DNA of 63,600 bases, the filler included, from Licmophora abbreviata (Eukaryota), in assembly GCA_900291995.1 (NCBI GenBank). It is 9 parts of 9 records of this genome, joined end to end, with 100 filler letters (N's around TTAATTAATTAA, not from the genome) between each part and the next. Parts side by side here need not be neighbours in the genome. Positions count along the whole stretch, not along the records: positions 34,636 to 44,309 come from OLMU01003959.1; 8 more parts are not named here. One strand, 5' to 3'. The notes beneath the pieces were generated by a model. That model was not told the DNA's origin. It searched no databases and worked only from the letters and a program-made list of their open reading frames with translations. The stretch's first letter is position 1. Each line of letters starts with the position of its first letter. Positions 34,768 to 45,900 of this stretch are shown here, one piece after another. The position numbers and the translations under genes are program-made.

Positions 34768-35388
34768 CTACGTCCACGACGGGGTCCACTCCTTGGCAGA
34801 CGCCGACAAGCCATCGTCTGTACCAGTACCTCCACTCGTAGCACGCCTTGATGACTGTGACGCACCGGAAGAAAGTCCTGGAAGAGCGGGCTTCCACGAA
34901 GACGTGACAGGAAGTGCAGTGTGACTAGCCCCGTTAGGAGCCATCCTGGCAGCATAACTCGGCGCTGACATGACACTTCCAGTGTTGCTCGCCGCCAGTG
35001 CGGCTGGGAAGGCTGCTTCGCGTGCTCGTGCTTCTCCTTCATCCTGCGGGTGACGATACAAACACCCCTTCGTTACGCAGTTGTCTCCATGCCGACAATT
35101 GATTCGCTGGTACTTGGCAAGGAGCATATCTGCTTCCTTCTTCGGGGGGTGTCGTTTCCGGCAGCCTCCCTCCTGAAACGAGCAGATTCCCGCCAAGAAC
35201 GCCATACACGGCTCCTTGCTTACCGCAGAAGCGGCGTCGGCTTGTTTCTTGCGAGTGGGATGCCGATAAATACAATCAGGACGTGTACAACCAGCACCGT
35301 AGAAGCACTGGACCATCTGTGAGGACTTGCGCCCGGCTTGCATGGCAACGCCCCGATGGTTGTTCACGTAATTCTTTCCTCGTGGCAT
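34768..35388 (-). CDS. Triple CCCH zinc-finger RNA-binding protein
   Basis: CFYGAGCTRPDCIYRHP, CMAFLAGICSFQEGGCRKRHP and CRHGDNCVTKGCLYRHP. Ends in a PAM2-like LSASAKEWTP. Confidence 0.85.
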   Translation of the reverse strand: MPRGKNYVNNHRGVAMQAGRKSSQMVQCFYGAGCTRPDCIYRHPTRKKQADAASAVSKEPCMAFLAGICSFQEGGCRKRHPPKKEADMLLAKYQRINCRHGDNCVTKGCLYRHPQDEGEARAREAAFPAALAASNTGSVMSAPSYAARMAPNGASHTALPVTSSWKPALPGLSSGASQSSRRATSGGTGTDDGLSASAKEWTPSWT

Positions 35389-35918
35389 GATCTGATAACA
35401 GAGCGTCGTGCCAGCAATCTACCCCCCTACGATGCAAGCAGGCGGTATTGACGTCGACTCTAGAATACTTTCGGCCTTGCAACTTGCAATCAACCGACGT
35501 GACCGACAAACACCGCGACAACGGATGACAGCAAATTCCAAACACAATTTCAATTGAAGTCACTCTCCAGCGCTCGGTTCCTCAATTTAGATCCTTTCTA
35601 CTTTGTACATTGGACAGGTAACCGATCGAAAGTTACAATTTTCAATTTTCGATCAATGTTCAATCGATGCGAGCGTGGCAGTACCGTGTCGGCTTTGAGA
35701 AACAGACGACTGGGCACTGGCTTGCAAGGGACGATGCTAAGAAACGCTCTACACACAGCATTATATCTCCTCAACTTGCATGGTACAGCTATGTTGAATC
35801 GTCTCGCCACCACACTAAAAACATAGTACCGCACCCAGGCACCGTCCATGCCAAGAACGATACTAACCCTCCACTACCACATACTCCCTGTCACCTCTTC
35901 TCCAACAAACGCACTCGC

Positions 35919-37545
35919 TTACACGGCTCCATGCGTCATCATAACGTTCGCCACACGGAGGAATTCCAATAATGTTGGCACCAGCAAACAAGTCTCCGCG
36001 AGCATTGAACTCCTGCGCCGTCCTCTTGACATCTCCATAAATGCGGCCCACTTGCTTGGCCAGCTGTTCGTCCGTCGGGTTCGATCCCAACGCATGGACA
36101 ATGGACGATCCAGTGAGCGTCATGGTATCGGGTCCGTACATGAGACCACGCTTGCGTAGAACCGAACGGGCTCCCGCAGTCACGGTCGAGTTTCCGCCCT
36201 CAATGATACCCATACAACCGTTGTCAGCAAGCCTGTTGGCCGCTGCCGTATCGATCGTGTTCATCGCACCGCACGGAAAGCACAAGTCGCAAGGAATGTC
36301 TAGCATGCTGTCAGGTTCGTTGAACTTGGCCGTCGTGGACGAAATAATGTAGCGTCCCAGCAGGGCACCTCTTTCGTCCTTGATACTATTGATGGTTTTG
36401 AGCTGACCGGCGTTGATACCGTCGGGTTCGTACACATGTCCACTGGCATCGGAAAAGCTGATAGGAATGGCGCCGTACTCCAAGAGCTTCTCGGCAACAC
36501 TACGTGCTACCTTTCCAGATCCGATAATTAGGCAGCGCTTTCCTTCTAAGCTGTCGTTGCGATCCTTGACCATTTCATTGGCAAAGTGAGTCACTGCAAA
36601 GCCTGGCGCCTGGGTTTGACAACGCGCACGTTGGATGTATCGATATGGGAACGAGTGAGTGAGATGTCAAATAGAAAACCATCGTCTGCATGCTTTGATA
36701 TACGACACAAACTTTCCACTTACTGAGTAAAACATGGACGTGGGACCTCCACTCAGAAAAGGACGGCCTCCACTACTCGTCTTGATGTTGATGCGCTTGT
36801 ATTGGCCAAACAAGTATCCGAGTTCCTTGTCGCCGACACCCATACCCATCAAAGGAAGATCTACATCGGGTCCAATGTATTTTGCAAGTTCGGTCATGTA
36901 GGACTGACAGAATCGCTGCATTTCCGCCTCACTCTTGTCAAAGGGATTGAAGTCACTCCCTCCCACGGCCGCTCCGATGTCAAACCCGGTCAAGGCGTTA
37001 CTGAAAACACTGACAAAGCCAAAGGCTTTCAAGACCGCCGTATTGATGTGTGGCGAGAAGTGCAAGGATCCTTCGTAGGGACCAATGCTGGACGAGTACT
37101 GAATTCGCCATCCACGGTTCATTCGCACGACACCCATATCGTCAATCCAGGCGACGCGAAACTGCAAGAATCTCTCTGGCTCCATGAGTGTCTTGGCGAC
37201 AAAGGCATAGCGGGGATTTCGATCAAAAATGGGCGAGAGGCAGTGCAGGGCGGAGGTAACGCAGTCGATGAAAGCTGTTTCGTGTCCGTCACGGCGACTA
37301 GCTTCTCCGACTAGCAAATTTGCAGCTTCCATGCCGGTTTTGAAGCGAACATCACCCTGTCGTCGAAAGAGAGGCTTGTTTCTCCAAGACTTGGATACTT
37401 TCATCGTTTGGTGGACTCCTTCGTCCGACGACAGCAGCGTCTTCTTTCCTGCCACATCAGACGCAGTGGCTAAGGCTCGAACTGCTGTAGACGACACAGA
37501 GGGACAGCGGCGAGCCGCAAGAGCGGCTTTTCGGGCCAGCATCAT
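35919..37545 (-). CDS. NADP-glutamate dehydrogenase homolog with degenerate active site, mitochondrial-type presequence
   Basis: Motifs EPER..FRVAWIDD.G...NRGWRIQY, RFCQSYMTEL, GYLFGQYKR and GANI.GF.RVA..M..HG. Intron 36723-36610. One extra A near 35964 shifts the last 15 codons. Confidence 0.88.
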
Positions 37546-37857: not shown

Positions 37858-39228
37858 ATGAGAGCCTTGTCTATTCTTACGGTAATTCTGGCCTTGGAGG
37901 CGCTCGAAACAGTCCAGGCGAGCCACAGCAGGCCGAGAACGACGGTATCCACCCCGCCCGTTGGATCTCCTCCAGATTTGACCAAGTCACGTCCAACCGT
38001 CGACGTTCAGAAGCTCTCAACAGCAGATTTGACGTATCCTATCGTGACTGAACCTGCGCTTCAGTCGAGGGGTGGAGACTCGGACTCGTTCACCTCAAAC
38101 TTGCTCGATCGACTCAGGATTGCTTCGTACTTTGCGCTGTGGTATGCCCTCAATGTCGTCTACAACAGTAAGTCAGCAGCAAGATGACCCAAGGAGCGAC
38201 TATTTCAGGCACCATCTCACTCGCATCCAACACATCTGCTCGTTTATCGCACCCAAGTTGTCAATAAGAAAGTTTTGAACGTTCTGCCGGCTCCCTTGAC
38301 GGTCGGGACTCTGCAGTTTGGCACAGGTGCCTTGTATGCTTCCTTGTTGTGGCACACCAGACTCCGCACACCGGCGACTCTTACCTCGGAAGGACGCCCG
38401 CTTGTCTCCAAGATTGGTTTCTATCATGCTCTTGGACAGCTCCTCTCCATGGTTTCCTTGGGGGCCGGACCTGTCTCGTTTACCCATATTGTCAAAGCCC
38501 TCGAACCCTTCTTCAGTGCGCTGGTCAATGGCCTCATGTTTGGAAAGTGGATGCAGTGGCAAGTCTATGCGACACTTCTTCCTGTCGTCGGTGGCGTTGG
38601 GTATGCATGCTTGAAAGAACGATCCTTCAGCTGGTTGGCCTTTGCGACCGCCATGGGAAGCAACGTGGCCTTTGCGCTTCGTGCCGTCATGAGCAAGGCC
38701 GCCATGACGGGAGGAGCCACCATGGGAGCCAATCTCACTAGCGCCAACTTGTTTGGATTGGTCACGTGGATGGCGTTCTTTATGAGTATTCCGGCGGCGC
38801 TGTTGGGAGAAGGCATGTCGTTTCTGGACCTGTGGAAAAAGGCCGTCGGAGAGACGGATGTGGTCGAACTGACGAGGGCTGTCATTATTTCGGGGCTATT
38901 TCATTATCTCAACAACGAAGTAATGTACTTGGCGCTGAGCAATGTGCATCCCGTCACTCTGGCCGTCGGAAATACCATGAAGCGTGTATTCATCATGGTG
39001 GCGTCTGTCCTGGTCTTTCGAAATCCTGTGTCGTTGCAGGCGGGTATCGGATCGGGGATCGGCATTGCGGGTGTTTTGCTTTATAGTCTTACAAAACAGT
39101 ACTACGAGGCGCTTGAAGCAGAAGAGACTGCGGGAAAGAAAAAGGGTGGCAAAGCGAAGGGTGGTAAGGCCAGTGCCAAGAAACCGGCACCGCGTGCCAA
39201 CAAAATATTTGCGTTACGCAGACGATGA
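37858..39228 (+). CDS. Triose-phosphate/phosphate translocator family protein (complex-plastid membrane)
   Basis: Motifs YFALWYALNVVYN|IVNKK, VSFTHIVKALEPFF, FHYLNNE and VGNTMKRV. Intron 38168-38257. N-terminal signal peptide. Confidence 0.93.
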
Positions 39229-39315: not shown

Positions 39316-42300
39316 TTACTTGGTATCTTCAGTCCTTTCAAGCTTGTTCGTGGCTTCAGGATTGTGCGACGGGATTCGCTCTCTACGATCCACTTGAGCA
39401 GCCGATGCTGTAGCGACGGGCGGCGGATCCGAGGGGAATACAATGGGTCTTCCGATGATGCGAATGAACATTTCTGCTTCTTGGTACTTGGCGTCAATCG
39501 CTCGGGTCGATGATGCGGACTCGACGATGGCAGCGGTTCGGATTGCCGACCACTCGGGCTGGTCCTCGATGCACGGTTCGTGTTTTTCCAGTATCCGTCG
39601 CTTGGCAAGAATGTAAGCGAGGCTCAAATCCTCCATACCGTGGTTGCCCCAACCGGTGTGTTCGTCGTACCATTCACACCGAAGAAGACGTGCTTCCTCT
39701 TCACGAAGATCGTGCATCAACATACCTGAGTCGACCCATTGAAATGGAAAGTCCGGGTAGGTATCGTAGCGAATCTCGAGGAACTCTCGTCTTAAATTAG
39801 ACTGCACCCCTGCAACGACCTGTTCGTAAAACTGCAGTTGTTGTCTCAATTCACTGCTCGTCTTGACACCCTTCGCCTGCATGAATCTATTCGCGTAGTG
39901 ACTCACTTCACTTGTCTTGGGAGGGAGGTCTTCCACTGGAGCTTCGTGTGGGCCGCCAAACAAAGCAACGCGGCGTGCCCTCCGAGGTGGAACGGGCTCG
40001 AATCGGAAAATAGTCGAGCCGCTGCGATAAATCTTCTTGCGCTTCTCCCCTCGCGCCGGAGAGTCGATCAATTTCATTGTCTCCACAATGACGGTCGAAG
40101 ATGGTAACGGGTATCTGTCTGGTTCCACATACATGGCACGAGTGACGCTGCTGGAGAAGAACTTTCCTGGTGACAGTTTCGGTAGACTCAGCTCCTCCTC
40201 CGTCATGGTACTGTCGTTGGCTGGTACAAAGAGAAGGGTCCATCCACTTGCCTTCGAAAGGCCACTGAGCGCCACCACAGTGTCGGCGCCCGCCTTTTTG
40301 GCGACCCGCCTGGCCAAGACGCTCTCCGCCGATACAAAGGCAACATTGCATAACATGTCATCGGAGGCGGTCCCACTCCACGTCGCACTCTGTGGCAACG
40401 CCCCCGTGCTTGAAGAAAGATCCACCATATACGTAAGATACTTGCACCCTTTCGTAGTCTTGCGAGCACTCTCGACCACTCGATCGTCATACACGGAGCT
40501 GGTGCACTGGTGCTGGTAGCCACACTCAGACGCACAAGGGAACGGGCGCGATGTCAAGTGTGACATCGTCTCGTTGCCAAACAAGACTTTCCGGAATTTA
40601 GGACGGGATTCAACGATTTCGTTGCCATATGGAAATGCACGCGACAGGTGCGAAGCAGCCATTCTCTGGGAGCCGATGGCGGGCGACACGGATGCCTCCC
40701 AGCCCAACCATTCGGAAGTTATCGACACGTCCTGCGCCGAGCTGCTTCTTCGCTGCTGAGTCGTAGTGTCTGCGTTGCCGCGCAAGCTCCGTTTCGCAGA
40801 ATCCTGCTCCATCGCCGGAGGCGCACCATCACGTTTGACTCCCCCCACCAAGCGATCGACCTCGTCTTGCAAAACAGCTCGATTTACGGCCGGTCCTCCA
40901 CTAGTGCCAATCGTAAACGACGACACAAAAGCAAACTCCTGTTTCCACTGCATTCCCGCAACAAGCGCGTCGACCAGGTCGTCCTCGTGCAAGTACAATG
41001 TGTTATCGGAAGATGCATCCGCAAGACTCACGGTCGTGTTGTCGATCAGTCCCAACGCATACTTGATGCTTTCTCGCAAATGAGTCGCACCATCATCCAC
41101 GCCACCGTACACAACATGTCCAGGCTCCAATTGCAGTGTCGTCATGGAAAGACCGTGCAACGCGTGATGGGTCGACGTCAATACATGATGTTCGTGTACC
41201 ACGTGATGATCCGGCAAGAACGTGACTACATGCGGTTGTCTTCGTTTCGTCGTTTTGAGCTGCACCAAGGCGTCCAATAAATGTGACAACGATGCCAGTC
41301 GTTCGTATCGATGAAACAATCGTGCCGTCGGAGACTCGTCGTCGTCACTATGATCATGATCACTGTGGGCTTCCTCAACATGCGCCACTGGCAAATGTAC
41401 AATGTGAGTCGGCTGGAATGATTGCAGCGTTTTCAGCAGTGTTTGCTTGCCGAGCGGCTGAAGTCCAACGACCGAAACTACCAACTTTTCAAAGACAGGT
41501 ATGGTTCGCTTCAATACACTGTAGAATTCATGTAGAAGCCGCATTCTGGTATACTTGTGATTGGGCATGAGAGAGTCGATTCCCAAGACATGTTCGACGC
41601 CGCAGTCGTTGTACAGCCGCAAGGCCAGTTTGACCCCCACCTCGCTCAGTACATTTGTAATGACCACCTTGGAATCGCGATTGAGCGGCGCCGACGATGA
41701 CCAGTGTTTGGACGGAGAAGAAGTATCGCCACCACCACATATAGAATCCACAGATTTCCATGACGCAGCCGATGTATCGTCCTTGTCATGCTTCGGAATG
41801 ACACCATCGTAGGACACTGGTTGTAGTGATGATCGAATGGTCGTGGCCGGTGGCGCAACACGGTTTCGCCGACGTCGGTATCGTTGTTGCAGTGTCGCGA
41901 GTTGCGCAGCGGACAGTTTCGAAAGCGACGGTGATTTCTTGACCGCTCCAGTTCCACCACCTCCCACACTGCCACTACGAGTCCCTCCTAGAGTCGACGC
42001 TGTTGCGTTGTTGCTGGTGTCGTCGTCTTGGTGATTGTGCTGCCTCCCGACAAGGTATAAACGACAAAGTCGTCAGTCGCTCGTTTCATTTGCGCATGCA
42101 AGGAAGGGTAGCGAAGTAGAGATGCGACAAGGATAAGTCCAAGAGCCACCATGAGAGCCATTCGACGGCGTTCCTTTCGAGAGTAGCGTGTTGGTCGTTG
42201 ACGATGAAAACAGGAGGACCCACAGAGAGTAGTACAGCGTTTGAAAGTACTACTACTAGTAGTAGTAGAAGTGGTAGAAGTAGCCAGCAGTGTGGACCTC

Positions 42301-42749: not shown

Positions 42750-42998
42750 ATAGCACAGAGCTCGCAGTCGGCGATGGCGAGCTCGTAAGCTCCCAACGCG
42801 CGCTCCTACATTCAACATTGTTTCCGCGACCATGGCGAAATAAAAAAATTGCTCGAGGGACGGGTCGATAGTCGTCGTTTTCGCATCGTTTGGCAAAGCA
42901 TTGAGGCGCGAGAGTGAGTTCATTCTTGTCTGCGGACAGTAAGTACACTCATAAAACCACCCGATACTCCCAGAATACAGCAAAAGACCTCCAAAACG

Positions 42999-45900
42999 AT
43001 GAACAACGACGACTTGACGACCAACACCATCGGGCTCACGTCAGACATGGCGCTGCTACGGCATTCTCACTCGTCTCGACGACGACCACGACGATCTTCT
43101 CCAGTTTCGTCATCCGTCACGTCTCTCTCCGCCTTCTGTACGCTTCTGCTTGCACTCCTATCGTCAATTCAGGCCACAGCTCAGCCGCAGTCGGACGATG
43201 CTCTCACACCCGAAAGCGTGGTCCTAGTCACGGGCGCCGCTGGATTCCTCGGAAGCGAACTTGCCATGGCCCTGGGACGTGTCTACGACGTCAAAAAGAT
43301 CATTTGTGTCGACGTCATGAGTGCTGCTACTACAACACACACGAACTCTCTGCCAGAAGAACAGAATCTTGCTCTCTTTGAGTTTCAGCGTCAGCGAGCC
43401 TTTCACGTATTGCAAGACTTGCAGCAAAAGATTCATTTCTATCGCAGCGACATTGCTCCCTCGCTTCCGGAATACTTCGATCTGGGCGAAGTGCCGGTGC
43501 TAGAGTACATCTGGAGAGAGCACAGTGACATTACACATGTCGTACATCTCGCAGAGCCTCCCGGCTCGCAGTACATGGCTGTGCCGAGAACGAAGGAGTC
43601 CATCAAGGCGGGACTCATGGAGACTGTGCTCGAACAAGCCTTGAAGCAACCCAGACCACCCCACATTGTCTATGCCTCCTCTTACGAAGTCTATGATCAT
43701 CGAAACAGTGCTGATGGTCGAGGCAATGCAGAAACAACAGCCCCGTTTCGTGAGTCCACTCCCATCACGGTCCCGTCGTCACTGCGGGGCGCATCCAAAC
43801 TACTGGACGAAATGCTCGCTCAGACGTACTATGAAACCGATCAACTCTTTACCGTGGGACTGCGTCTCTTCTCCTTGTATGGTCCATGGGGCGTTCCTGG
43901 TTCCCCGCTCTTTGAAATGGCCGAACGAGCCGTCGCCGGGGATGTCAGTATACTACAGCAGAATGGAAGCGGCGAGTCGGACCTGTGGGACGATGTACGA
44001 GATTACTTGTACATTGACGATGCCGTCGATGCGGTTCTTAGTGCCATGCAAGTACGAACCGTCGACGGGGCGCCGCTGTCATCAATGTCGGGTCGGGACA
44101 GGGCACGTCACTGCGAGAGATTGCGCGACACATGGAAACTCTACTTCCTCGAAAGACTCCTGATCTTCAAGTGCCATCCGATTCTTCTTCTACTACCTCG
44201 ACATCTCGGACTATCTCCTTCGCTTCCATGGACCGAGCGGAACAGATACTTGGCTTTCAACCGCAGATCTCATTGCAACAAGGACTCACAAAGCTCTTGG
44301 CGTGGCACTNNNNNNNNNNNNNNNNNNNNNNNNNNNNNNNNNNNNNNNNNNNNTTAATTAATTAANNNNNNNNNNNNNNNNNNNNNNNNNNNNNNNNNNN
44401 NNNNNNNNNATGGACCGAGCGGAAAATGTACTTGGCTTTCAACCGCAGATCTCATTGCAACAAGGACTCACAAAGCTCTTGGCGTGGCACTACGATCGAG
44501 CATTTCCGTACGGCAGTCACACCGCAGCCGAGAATCAACACCACGAGGCGCTAGCCAAGCAAGGAATCGTCTCCTGTTTGCCGTATGACAAGGAGTGCTT
44601 GAGCGGTACTCCCGTCTTTCCTTGTGCGTCAGAGTGCTCGCATGAAGCGCAGTGTACTTCGTCGTTTTATGACGACGTCTTGGTTGTGACTAGATCTCTC
44701 GCCACCGAGTGTCGTGATATCTTGTACACGGTCGCCCTCGAGATTGACTTGGAGAACATTCCATCTGCCAACATGGCAGGCTCGTCCCGCAAGGCGTCGT
44801 TCTTGGAAGGACCTTGCAACATTGCGTTCGTTTCCGAGTCAAGCCCGCTAGTACAACGACTCAAGGAAGAACAAGACTTTTCGTCGTCGTGGACCGTCGT
44901 GGAGGAATTTCTTCGGATCGCTAGTAATTCAAATGGCAAGGAGAAGAAGCTTTTGACTCACGGATATTGGACGCTGATTCCGGTATGGACGCCGTCGTTC
45001 GTGACGGGGGATGAGGCGTTGTTCCGACTGTTGCCAAAACTATCGCCAGGTCTTTTTTTTGGCAAGTCGACGCACCGCGCCATCTACTGCGACCCAAACG
45101 TCGTTTTCAAGAATGTCAAGTCAATCATTCGAGAGGCTCACATGCAACCGTACTTGGATGGCGTAGAAGGTGCGACCGCCATGCTGGTGGGGGGAGAGCG
45201 ACCGGGGCCCACGAGTGCGTTTGGAAAGGCAGCGGGGCACATTGGCCAATTGCCTCTGTCAACCGAGTCAGTTCAGAATGCCGCCTATCGCATGATTCAG
45301 ATTGGTGCGATTGACGAAATGATTGCGGGCGAGGGAAGCTCTCAACACGCCTTGGTAGATTCTTCGTGGGTCGTCCACACGTTGCAGAGCGAAGATAGTC
45401 GACTCTTTCGTTGCGATGTGTTGGGCGAAGTTATCCAGTGGGACGTTCCGACCGACAAGACTGCATTCGAGTTCATAATGGAACTCCACGACATGTGGAG
45501 CCGTGTTATTGTCAACACGAAGGAGAATGAGCCTTGGTGGATTGGCGATGCCGTCTTGACCGTCCCGCAGGAAACTAGTGCCGCGTCGGACGAAAGTGAC
45601 AAGGAAGCAGACATGGCACAAGATCGACGGCGATTGGCTGACACAGTAGCAGGCGCCGAGGCTGAGACGGAGGGTTTCAGCGGCGAAGGAGAAGGCGTTG
45701 GCAAGGAAGACGACGCTGATGGGGAAGGAGACGCTGACGAGGAAGAGGAAAGTGATGAGGAGGAAGATGCGGACACGGACGAGGATGCCGACAAAGAAGA
45801 ATCTGACGAGGAAGATGAAAGCGAAGAAGCCGAAAACGAGGAAGACGAAACCACGAAAGAGACGGACAATTCCGAAGAGACTGACAAGACATCCGAAGCA

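Follow-up and report, generated by a model that had tools for sequence, protein, structure and literature searches.

A GdhA-type glutamate dehydrogenase homologue of Licmophora abbreviata with replaced active-site residues

The closest described relatives of the protein reported here are active hexameric GdhA-type NADP-glutamate dehydrogenases (NADP-GDHs), and it was compared with E. coli GdhA, C. symbiosum GDH, C. glutamicum GDH (5gud/5ijz) and Plasmodium GDH (2bma/3r3j). The only experimentally studied precedent that we cite for a GDH-fold protein kept without activity is bacterial: according to PMC9570180, the inactive GdhA of Thermus thermophilus is the regulatory subunit of the catalytic GdhB. 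We analysed a stretch of 63,600 nucleotides (the window) from the Licmophora abbreviata assembly GCA_900291995.1 and found, on part OLMU01003959.1 (34,636 to 44,309 of the window), a GdhA-type gene whose catalytic residues are replaced. On balance we favour the reading that it belongs to an old, selected, non-catalytic GdhA-type family of stramenopiles, that the protein is mitochondrial and stands alone, and that an extra base near its stop is an assembly error or a young allele.

Gene model and active-site residues

The complete gene lies on the minus strand at 35919..37545, from an ATG at 37545-37543 to the stop of a family-type C-terminus, as determined from open reading frames, translations and Pfam matches. 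Exon 1 (36724..37545, minus strand) comprises 274 codons and encodes a presequence, an N-terminal arm and domain I, where the active site has been remodelled. It is followed by a phase 0 GT..AG intron of 114 nt (36610..36723, minus strand; GTAAGT...CCCAG) with an in-frame stop inside, and by exon 2, which encodes the dinucleotide-binding domain II and runs up to a frame break (35966..36609, minus strand). When 14 related loci were examined at the splice point, the frame was open across it in 7, cDNA-like contigs among these, and closed 1-22 codons upstream of the APG codon in the other 7. Both domains of the ELFV (Glu/Leu/Phe/Val) dehydrogenase superfamily with the GdhA-type fold were present, the N-terminal dimerisation domain (ELFV_dehydrog_N, PF02812, 2e-36) and the C-terminal dinucleotide-binding domain (ELFV_dehydrog, PF00208, 3e-37). 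The best solved relatives were the active Plasmodium NADP-GDHs 3r3j (E 6e-54) and 2bma (E 2e-53), and the nearest full-length relative, P0003, was 73% identical across 489 tree columns. AlphaFold2 modelled the exon 1 product with a mean pLDDT of 83.3 (94-98 across most of domain I) and P0003 with a mean pLDDT of 89.8 and a pTM of 0.86; the P0003 model was matched by Foldseek to C. glutamicum GDH 5gud_A with a TM of 0.93 and an rmsd of 2.1 over 450 columns. The locus encodes a GdhA-type GDH homologue with an intact fold.

The substitutions were defined by residue-by-residue alignment to Plasmodium GDH (3r3j, 2bma), which revealed that GPYKGG had become GPYEGS, FKNSL had become FSNAL, GGGKGG had become GAAVGG and PAGDIG had become PLMGMG. 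On the minus strand, E158 (37072..37074) replaces the first substrate lysine, S182 (37000..37002) the second, V194 in GAAVGG (36964..36966) the catalytic lysine, and G234 in PLMGMG (36844..36846), a Gly in 99% of the clade described below, the catalytic aspartate. The place of RPEATGYG in active enzymes is occupied by FYSAPGFA, which straddles the splice junction and in which F272 (36730..36732, minus strand) replaces the Arg. In C. symbiosum numbering we take E158 and S182 to stand at the substrate lysines K89 and K113, and V194 and G234 at the catalytic K125 and D165; R205 and Q110 presumably belong to the same set. A GdhA-type scaffold with changed key residues had been proposed in the first-pass annotation, and it was borne out by Pfam, by the Plasmodium GDH alignment and by the clade columns; the codon positions that it gave for E158, S182 and V194 proved correct on recount. 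The sequence CDLCFPC was also considered; other members have A, V or I in place of its middle Cys, and an Fe-S idea for it was discarded because that Cys is not conserved.

To place these changes against active enzymes, we used as the reference 64 columns of the N-terminal half that show at least 93% invariance among 131 active relatives. In the clade 42 of them were kept, 8 were partly kept and 14 were lost, the last including both substrate lysines, the catalytic lysine, A-G-D of PAGD, Q of EQ and R of RPEA. These alignments suggest that more of the active site has gone than chance would predict. The catalytic Lys, the catalytic Asp and the substrate carboxylate ligands that a competent GDH carries are all absent, and we infer that the protein has no GDH activity. 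The first-pass view of a pseudoenzyme, in which the active site was lost selectively from an otherwise intact fold, is thereby supported by the alignments, the clade and its low dN/dS. That the protein might still be a GDH using other residues seems to us scarcely credible: public records do name members NADP-GDH or glutamate dehydrogenase (NADP+) (for example in Fistulifera, Ectocarpus, Tribonema, Nannochloropsis and Phytophthora), but these names are automatic annotation, and the four classical residues, the RPEA Arg and the EQ Q are all lost. Since the active-site residues are lost, the annotations as active glutamate dehydrogenase are probably wrong.

The stramenopile clade, its selection and the frame break

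The catalytic lysine was absent in 97 of the best 120 longer homologues. The members without it formed one clade with a support of 99 that holds oomycetes, eustigmatophytes, brown algae, chrysophytes, raphidophytes and diatoms, with Cyclotella, Thalassiosira, Fistulifera, Triparma, Heterosigma, Ectocarpus, Tribonema, Nannochloropsis, Ochromonas, Phytophthora and Saprolegnia among the named members; many of the sequences derive from transcriptome collections, which speaks for expression of the orthologues, as do the cDNA-like contigs. In a 117-row tree the 65-row clade made up wholly of such members had an SH-aLRT of 99, and in a quick LG+C20 PMSF tree a single branch with a support of 99 separated 20 of these rows from 23 active ones. 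The origin of the clade lies no later than the base of the stramenopiles sampled. A first-pass suggestion had been to look for a clade sharing the substitutions with dN/dS below 1, and the outcome was positive: there is one such clade, and dN/dS is far below 1, ranging from 0.02 to 0.17. On 225 codons of the N-terminal half it was 0.024-0.095, on 216 codons of exon 2 it was 0.047-0.165 (comparisons with unsaturated dS only), and exon 2 against L001-L003 and L006 gave 0.09-0.15. Conservation is highest in domain I, which also bears a predicted pairing surface. At the level of sequence, the clade is shown to be old and under strong purifying selection from oomycetes to diatoms. A protein-cluster look-up of P0064 returned GDH-named clusters only. 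Full-text literature searches, with most subscription journals outside their coverage, returned no paper describing the clade, which may still have been published.

The residues that replace the first, second and catalytic Lys vary with lineage, being E/S/V in diatoms, E/S/Y in chrysophyte-like members and M/R/H in oomycetes. Across lineages the catalytic Lys position holds V, Y, A, H or F and the first Lys position E, M, A, S or Q; the diatom replacements (GPYEG, FSNAL, GAAVGG and MGMG) are conserved within that group. Given this variation, no single new ligand site is evident in the sequences across the clade. In domain II the dinucleotide-binding fingerprint GSGKVA (36505..36522, minus strand), which fits GxGxxA/G, is kept in the Licmophora gene, as had been claimed. 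Throughout the clade, GxGxxA together with the acidic residue after the second strand was kept in 79 of 97 proteins, and the second Gly was replaced in 16 of the 97, including the diatom Fistulifera, so that dinucleotide binding is not the common function of the whole clade. The GSGNVA Asn has gone, the sequence close to the nicotinamide pocket has degenerated at NMP and KAANAGG, and in diatoms the loop that follows KAANAGG is shorter.

These observations bear on whether the family might be a neo-functionalised enzyme, in which NAD(P)H and the remodelled cleft would serve another reaction, with a substrate that is uncharged or cationic. The fingerprint and acidic residue kept in most members, the conservation of the replacing residues within large groups and the strong purifying selection over the former active site are what such an enzyme would show. 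Against it speak the differences in the replacing residues between major lineages, the loss of the second Gly in 16 of the 97 members, the loss of the GSGNVA Asn and the decay of NMP and KAANAGG; we know of no ELFV-family enzyme without the Lys/Asp pair. We therefore think a new enzyme unlikely, and favour a selected protein that is non-catalytic.

One extra base was found at 35964..35965 (minus strand; AA inside GGAATTCC), which shifts the last 14 codons. The exon 2 frame continues into 31 unrelated codons, and the frame one base on reads the family-type C-terminus FLRVANVMMTHGAV followed by a stop at 35919 (35919..35963, minus strand, out of frame in the assembly). The frameshift noted at 35964 in the first pass is thus present in the assembly as described. 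FLRVANVMMTHGAV matches the final 14 residues of P0003 without a difference, and in 11 of 12 related loci no frame break interrupts this stretch. A small intron restoring the frame was rejected, since GFLRVAN returns only when exactly one base is taken out. Contigs from four public runs were aligned to the site and none bridged 35964/35965; an environmental contig with 0 differences over 165 bases ends two letters past 35964, and therefore neither confirms nor removes the extra base. The best public sequencing run contained 0.20 of the sampled words, and a search of JGI metagenomes for DNA of the same species gave at best a locus 85% identical over 85 residues. Exon 2 contigs came twice from a metatranscriptomic run and once from a presumed RNA run; none of them crosses the intron, and contigs are no proof of transcription.

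If the extra base were real, the Licmophora copy could be a newly dead pseudogene whose altered C-terminus destroys the protein. The base is there in the assembly, and the residues that it affects are conserved family-wide and lie in the predicted dimer interface. We nevertheless hold this to be quite improbable: the remaining 490 codons form a conserved, uninterrupted frame, the exact C-terminus of the family can still be read from the 14 that are shifted, and dN/dS between the Licmophora copy and its relatives is as low as among the relatives themselves. A unitary pseudogene would show disabling lesions and relaxed selection, and we found one 1-base shift and no other lesion. The frameshift does not look like the lesion of an old pseudogene, and we favour either an error of the assembly or an allele of very recent origin.

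N-terminus, self-pairing and active paralogues

The N-terminus carries a mitochondrial-type presequence of about residues 1-40 (37426..37545, minus strand), assigned by composition and modelled as disordered. By composition alone, there are 5 R/K and no D/E among the first 25 residues, consistent with the presequence originally claimed, and of the 90 clade proteins that begin with a start Met, 85 have at most one D/E over the same length. Judged from sequence, the protein would be imported into mitochondria. The presequence is followed by a clade-specific arm, G43-G71 (GVHQ..SKSWRNKPLFRRQGDVRFKTG; 37333..37419, minus strand), delimited by motif count and pLDDT, with a basic consensus of W-R-N-K-P-L-F-R-R..G-D..F-K-T-G. 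The strict arm motif occurred in 103 of 270 classified homologues, all of them lacking both the catalytic Lys and the catalytic Asp, and in 0 of 131 active ones. Its pLDDT was 86-94 in the Licmophora product and 95-97 in P0003, so the conserved arm models as ordered. The active neighbours P0282 and P0297 have LFRRGGREVSFVNGEQA and FFQNKSKEVKFKDGAQA at the arm position, a weak form of it.

When two P0003 copies (residues 60-517) were modelled together, the pair reached an ipSAE of 0.43 compared to 0.00 for the best control; at least 68% of contacts agreed between runs, and the partner pLDDT was at least 85. In calibration on microbial proteins, 21 of 30 solved as same-chain pairs came up to the mark, and none of the 23 solved as single chains did; among eukaryotic proteins 17 of 29 reached it, and only 1 of 7 among those without an older solved relative. 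The predicted interface consists of the domain-I strand 137-147 and the C-terminal residues 515 and 517. Since GDH hexamers have been solved, the pass of the P0003 pair may reflect structures already familiar to the model, and it shows likeness only. The models suggest that the protein may assemble into a GDH-like oligomer through the domain-I sheet.

Active GdhA-type paralogues could be placed in three stramenopile taxa. The Phaeodactylum NADP-GDH is called cytoplasmic in PMC8811913; read by eye, the active paralogue of Triparma has a signal-peptide-like N-terminus and that of Heterosigma lacks an N-terminal extension. As far as their sequences and PMC8811913 indicate, the active paralogues of these three taxa do not look mitochondrial, and no co-localised active GdhA-type partner was found among them. 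The nearest active neighbours of the clade in the tree, P0282, P0297 and P0101, have mitochondrial-type N-termini, in P0282 and P0297 together with the weak arm, and a mitochondrial active partner may exist in some stramenopiles.

The first-pass annotation had suggested that, on the Thermus pattern, the protein serves an active GDH as its allosteric subunit, such that the two proteins would form a hetero-hexamer under allosteric control. Several points speak for this. The Thermus subunit is a described case; its structure 3aoe was among the fold matches (rank 46, TM 0.76); domain I, with its predicted pairing surface, is best conserved; active relatives of mitochondrial type adjoin the clade; and the residue losses and low dN/dS fit a presumably inactive paralogue kept by selection. 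Against this, the Thermus proteins are of a different, shorter GDH class with 23% identity, and the active paralogues in three stramenopile taxa look non-mitochondrial. With no co-localised active partner found, the suggestion is so far unsupported and in our judgement improbable. The protein would more plausibly function alone than as a subunit of an active GDH.

Proposed role and comparison with known systems

For such a stand-alone protein, a role as a ligand-binding or scaffolding protein in mitochondrial carbon and nitrogen metabolism may be proposed. It would act through the remodelled cleft, the ADP-binding Rossmann half, which is retained in most members including Licmophora, and the N-terminal arm. 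More specifically, and only tentatively, we suggest a GDH-shaped mitochondrial sensor or scaffold older than the split between oomycetes and photosynthetic stramenopiles, which has no active partner and whose cleft and arm bind a metabolite or protein and so steer carbon and nitrogen flux. Ocean production, coastal ecosystems and plant disease all depend in part on diatoms, brown algae and oomycetes, and models of nitrogen metabolism in these organisms are built on gene annotations. If the protein is inactive, models that use these annotations would wrongly place an ammonium-assimilating or glutamate-oxidising step in mitochondria, and if the sensor or scaffold proposal is true, the 'NADP-GDH' of this type annotated in diatoms, kelps, Nannochloropsis and Phytophthora would be a non-enzyme. 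The clade also offers a clean eukaryotic example of an old metabolic pseudoenzyme, with a datable origin, living active neighbours that have a weak form of the arm, and a gained N-terminal element.

Like the active hexameric GdhA-type enzymes, the protein has both Pfam domains, a closely matching fold (TM 0.93), 42 of the 64 invariant columns of the N-terminal half, GxGxxA and, by prediction here, the domain-I pairing surface. It differs from them in that the substrate lysines, the catalytic Lys/Asp, the RPEA Arg and the GSGNVA Asn are replaced, and in its added presequence and conserved N-terminal arm. The active eukaryotic GdhA-type proteins P0282, P0297 and P0101, with their mitochondrial-type N-termini, are its tree neighbours, and the first two share a weak form of the arm; unlike the Licmophora protein they keep GPYKGG, FKN, GxGKGG and PAGDIG. 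With Thermus GdhA, as presented in PMC9570180, it shares the state of a selected GDH-fold protein without activity (presumed here). The Thermus protein forms one complex with its catalytic paralogue, whereas here no co-localised active partner is evident; it is bacterial and of another GDH class (23% identity, TM 0.76), and the Licmophora-type protein carries an extra N-terminal arm.

Gene structure and loss of the active site

The minus-strand gene at 35919..37545, which encodes a homologue of GdhA-type glutamate dehydrogenase (GDH), was found to be split. Exon 1 (37545-36724, 274 codons, product P0001) begins with the first ATG past the upstream stop, at 37545, and is followed by a 114 nt GT..AG intron with an in-frame stop (36723-36610) and by the open frame of exon 2, which starts at 36609. 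Pfam analysis identified PF02812 in exon 1 (2e-36) and PF00208 in exon 2 (3e-37), the two domains of Glu/Leu/Phe/Val dehydrogenases, and alignment across the splice junction (..MFYS/APGF..) gave a segment equal in length to the RPEATGYG stretch of active GDHs. In 7 of 14 related metagenome loci, which are cDNA-like or have no intron here, the frame runs through the junction without interruption; in the other seven it ends 1-22 codons before the APG codon, which fits an intron in this position. All 56 distinct solved-structure sequences that match the window protein at E up to 0.001 are named glutamate dehydrogenases, with Plasmodium 3r3j (6e-54) and 2bma (2e-53) at the top.

Several other frames surround the gene. 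Directly downstream, an open frame at 34768-35418 (-) has several C-x-C-x-H spaced Cys/His runs and a weak CCCH zinc-finger match under the Pfam cut-off (24.7 vs 27 bits). A divergent, adjoining 346-codon frame at 38188-39228 (+) belongs to the triose-phosphate/phosphate translocator family (PF03151, 3.9e-80). Further on are a 918-codon frame at 39316-42072 (-) with no Pfam match at E up to 0.001 and a 479-codon frame at 42918-44357 (+) with an NAD-dependent epimerase/dehydratase domain (2.7e-21).

The alignments to 3r3j and 2bma displayed all four motif changes reported by the first-pass annotation, GPYKGG to GPYEGS, FKNSL to FSNAL, GGGKGG to GAAVGG and PAGDIG to PLMGMG, and the codon coordinates it assigned to the changed residues were correct. 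In the Clostridium symbiosum enzyme we take these positions to be K89, K113, K125 and D165. When the window protein was aligned with 270 homologues, 131 kept all four catalytic residues (active, or canonical) and served as the reference for invariance at a threshold of at least 93%; the dead group, which lacks the catalytic Lys, comprised 98 rows including the window. In the N-terminal half, 64 of 269 comparable columns were invariant by this measure, and the dead group had kept 42, partly kept 8 and lost 14. The lost columns are both substrate lysines and the Arg four residues past the first, the F, E and Q of GFEQ, the catalytic Lys with a later Gly, three positions of PAGD (A, G and D) with a later Arg, and the R and T of RPEAT. 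At the 23 invariant columns of the C-terminal half, 11 were kept, 5 partly kept and 7 lost; both glycines and the alanine of GxGxxA were kept, and the Asn of GSGNVA was lost. Local alignment revealed further decay of the TQNE, GANMP and KAANAGG stretches, most in diatoms, where the loop past KAANAGG is about eleven residues shorter. The column pattern indicates targeted loss rather than general decay, in agreement with the earlier proposal.

A stramenopile clade of dead homologues

A search limited to longer proteins gave 173 matches. Among the best 120 of these, 97 (P0003-P0100 minus P0069) lacked the catalytic Lys and the first substrate Lys, and the remaining 23 were canonical. The catalytic Asp is replaced by Gly in 96 of the 97 (P0098 keeps it) and the second substrate Lys is lost in 95 (P0073 and P0098 keep it). 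Their sources include diatoms (Epithemia, Cyclotella, Thalassiosira, Fistulifera, Cylindrotheca, Nitzschia, Chaetoceros, Leptocylindrus and Dactyliosolen), other lineages (Triparma, Heterosigma, brown algae, Tribonema, Nannochloropsis and Ochromonas) and oomycetes (Pythium, Peronospora, Phytophthora, Saprolegnia, Aphanomyces and Achlya). Several members come from transcriptome collections, and the family is transcribed in relatives. An exhaustive representative search, with 3656 matches at E up to 0.001, also brought in fragments and some deeply branching degenerate forms.

The question of whether a clade shares these substitutions, raised by the first-pass annotation, was answered by two quick trees. 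In the first (LG+G4, 117 rows), for which diatom rows were thinned to 17, four fused or duplicated models were left out and exhaustive-search rows were taken only at 400 residues or more, 65 dead rows formed one clade (SH-aLRT 99) whose branching follows stramenopile relationships, with two small dead groups outside it (P0148 with P0161, and P0226). In the second (LG+C20 PMSF, 43 rows), a single branch with support 99 parted 20 dead from 23 active proteins. No description of the clade was found in the full-text literature searched, which covered few subscription journals.

Other degenerate forms were also seen. P0161 (637 residues, with a long N-terminal extension) and P0148 make up a second, separate degenerate GdhA-like lineage among active enzymes, with R-K-A-E and R-K-G-D at the four positions. 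P0098, P0141-P0143, P0153 and P0170 are deep branches of the dead clade that retain some catalytic positions, for example A-K-A-D or H-K-H-D, and could represent intermediate stages, or else come from other protist groups. In Phytophthora fragariae (P0084, 1701 residues) and P. rubi (P0086, 1663 residues) an N-terminal dead GDH is joined to a protein kinase domain (PF00069), which may reflect merged gene models or a real fusion; in other oomycetes the dead GDH stands alone at about 500 residues.

The suggested test of dN/dS below 1 gave values well under it. In exon 2, compared over 216 ungapped codons, the gene had dN/dS of 0.145, 0.086, 0.146 and 0.135 against the related loci L001, L002, L003 and L006, and every pair with unsaturated dS lay at 0.047-0.165; the other pairs were saturated in dS, with dN 0.14-0.32. 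Over 225 codons of the N-terminal half, which include the former active site, the values were 0.024 (L005/L006), 0.034 (L008/L009) and 0.095 (window/L008), the remaining pairs being saturated in dS. The gene belongs to a family of probable pseudoenzymes that is old and conserved, has the GDH fold and has gained an arm at the N-terminus; the first observation was right, and is stronger than stated.

The N-terminal arm and the frame break near the stop

The arm is a conserved, clade-specific basic stretch, G43-G71 in the window protein (GVHQTMKVSKSWRNKPLFRRQGDVRFKTG, minus strand), upstream of the first helix common to solved GDHs. The strict pattern of its core occurs in 103 of 270 classified homologues, all of which lack both Lys and Asp at the catalytic columns, and is absent from all 131 canonical ones; variant forms are present in deep dead branches. 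A looser version was found in 2 of 212 active proteins, P0282 and P0297, which have mitochondrial-type N-termini as well and, with P0101, adjoin the dead clade in the 43-row tree. Because of these active neighbours, the arm probably arose before catalysis was lost. AlphaFold2 predicted it to be ordered (pLDDT 95-97 at residues 71-90 of P0003, the nearest full-length relative, and 86-94 at residues 51-70 of the window exon-1 product). The presequence noted earlier is borne out by composition: residues 1-25 of the window protein contain no acidic and five basic residues. Among the clade proteins that begin with Met and contain the motif (90 in all), the same region has at most one D/E in 85 and at least three R/K in 79, with a median of 46 residues ahead of the arm. 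Amino-acid composition thus makes a mitochondrial location of the clade proteins probable.

The frameshift flagged at 35964 is present in the assembly as one extra A (AA at 35965-35964, inside GGAATTCC, minus strand). The exon 2 frame runs ..GANIIG and then through 31 unrelated codons; one base further on, it reads FLRVANVMMTHGAV with a stop at 35919, which matches the final 14 residues of P0003 exactly and closely resembles all relatives. The same stretch lies in one frame in 11 of 12 related loci, L013 being the exception when the frame is simply extended. Public runs contain at most 0.20 of sampled words, and no contig of the four runs aligned spans the site. One environmental contig, which matches 35800-35964 with 0 differences in 165 bases, ends two letters beyond 35964, the suspected extra base; contigs often break at variant sites, and nothing can be concluded from this end either way. 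Assembly error, allelic variation and very recent mutation are the explanations left for the extra base; an old pseudogene is disfavoured because the rest of the gene is intact and the downstream codons are untouched. The C-terminal residues are conserved and form part of a predicted interface, so the protein would probably suffer if the shift were real.

Predicted assembly and possible function

The AlphaFold2 model of P0003 (517 residues, 117-row alignment) had mean pLDDT 89.8 and pTM 0.86 and was disordered only at residues 1-58. Two co-folded copies of residues 60-517 gave ipSAE 0.43 vs 0.00 for the best control, the runs shared at least 68% of contacts, partner pLDDT was at least 85, and the predicted interface comprised a domain-I strand (137-147), paired over a two-fold axis, and residues 515 and 517. 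For calibration, 21 of 30 microbial proteins solved as one-chain pairs attained the mark of this test, against 0 of 23 solved as single chains; the figure for eukaryotes was 17 of 29, but only 1 of 7 among those without an older solved relative. As GDH hexamers are already solved, passing shows likeness and may reflect memorisation by the predictor.

The kept dinucleotide-binding motif, which bears on a possible role as a dinucleotide sensor, was confirmed, with GSGKVA present in the window protein together with a Ser-Asp past the second strand. GxGxxA is kept in 79 of 97 clade members, and its second Gly is replaced in 16 (8 His, 4 Asp, 3 Asn and 1 Ser); the diatom Fistulifera and a chrysophyte-like group are among these. 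Since the motif is broken in these 16 and the substitutes for the catalytic residues vary by lineage, a clade-wide function is more likely to be carried by the fold, oligomeric core and arm than by one conserved ligand pocket. A new enzymatic activity is possible.

Another possible reading is that the dead protein is a regulatory subunit of an active GDH, as in Thermus, where passages of PMC9570180 describe GdhA as the catalytically inactive, regulatory subunit of a GdhA/GdhB hexamer. However, literature passages and the N-termini of active paralogues yielded no same-compartment active partner for the stramenopile clade. The Phaeodactylum NADP-GDH (13951) is called cytoplasmic in a passage of PMC8811913, and passages of PMC7408324 and PMC4588885 mention only this enzyme and NAD-GDH2. 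Read by eye, the active GdhA-type protein P0390 of Triparma strigata and a transcript relative, P0412, have a hydrophobic, signal-peptide-like start and then Phe, and Heterosigma active proteins (449 residues) begin at the conserved core. In some lineages, the active neighbours that carry the arm could serve as mitochondrial partners. Of the earlier proposal of a regulatory pseudoenzyme, the pseudoenzyme part is upheld by the targeted loss, the clade and dN/dS, and the possible role as a subunit of an active GDH is not supported so far. We favour a protein that would self-assemble and act as a non-catalytic sensor or scaffold without an active GDH partner. When the P0003 model was compared with known structures by Foldseek, GdhA-type enzymes came first (9yis_A at 8e-43; 5gud_A, aligned over 450 columns at TM 0.93 and rmsd 2.1), and the Thermus hetero-hexamer 3aoe_A stood at rank 46, with TM 0.76 and 23% identity.
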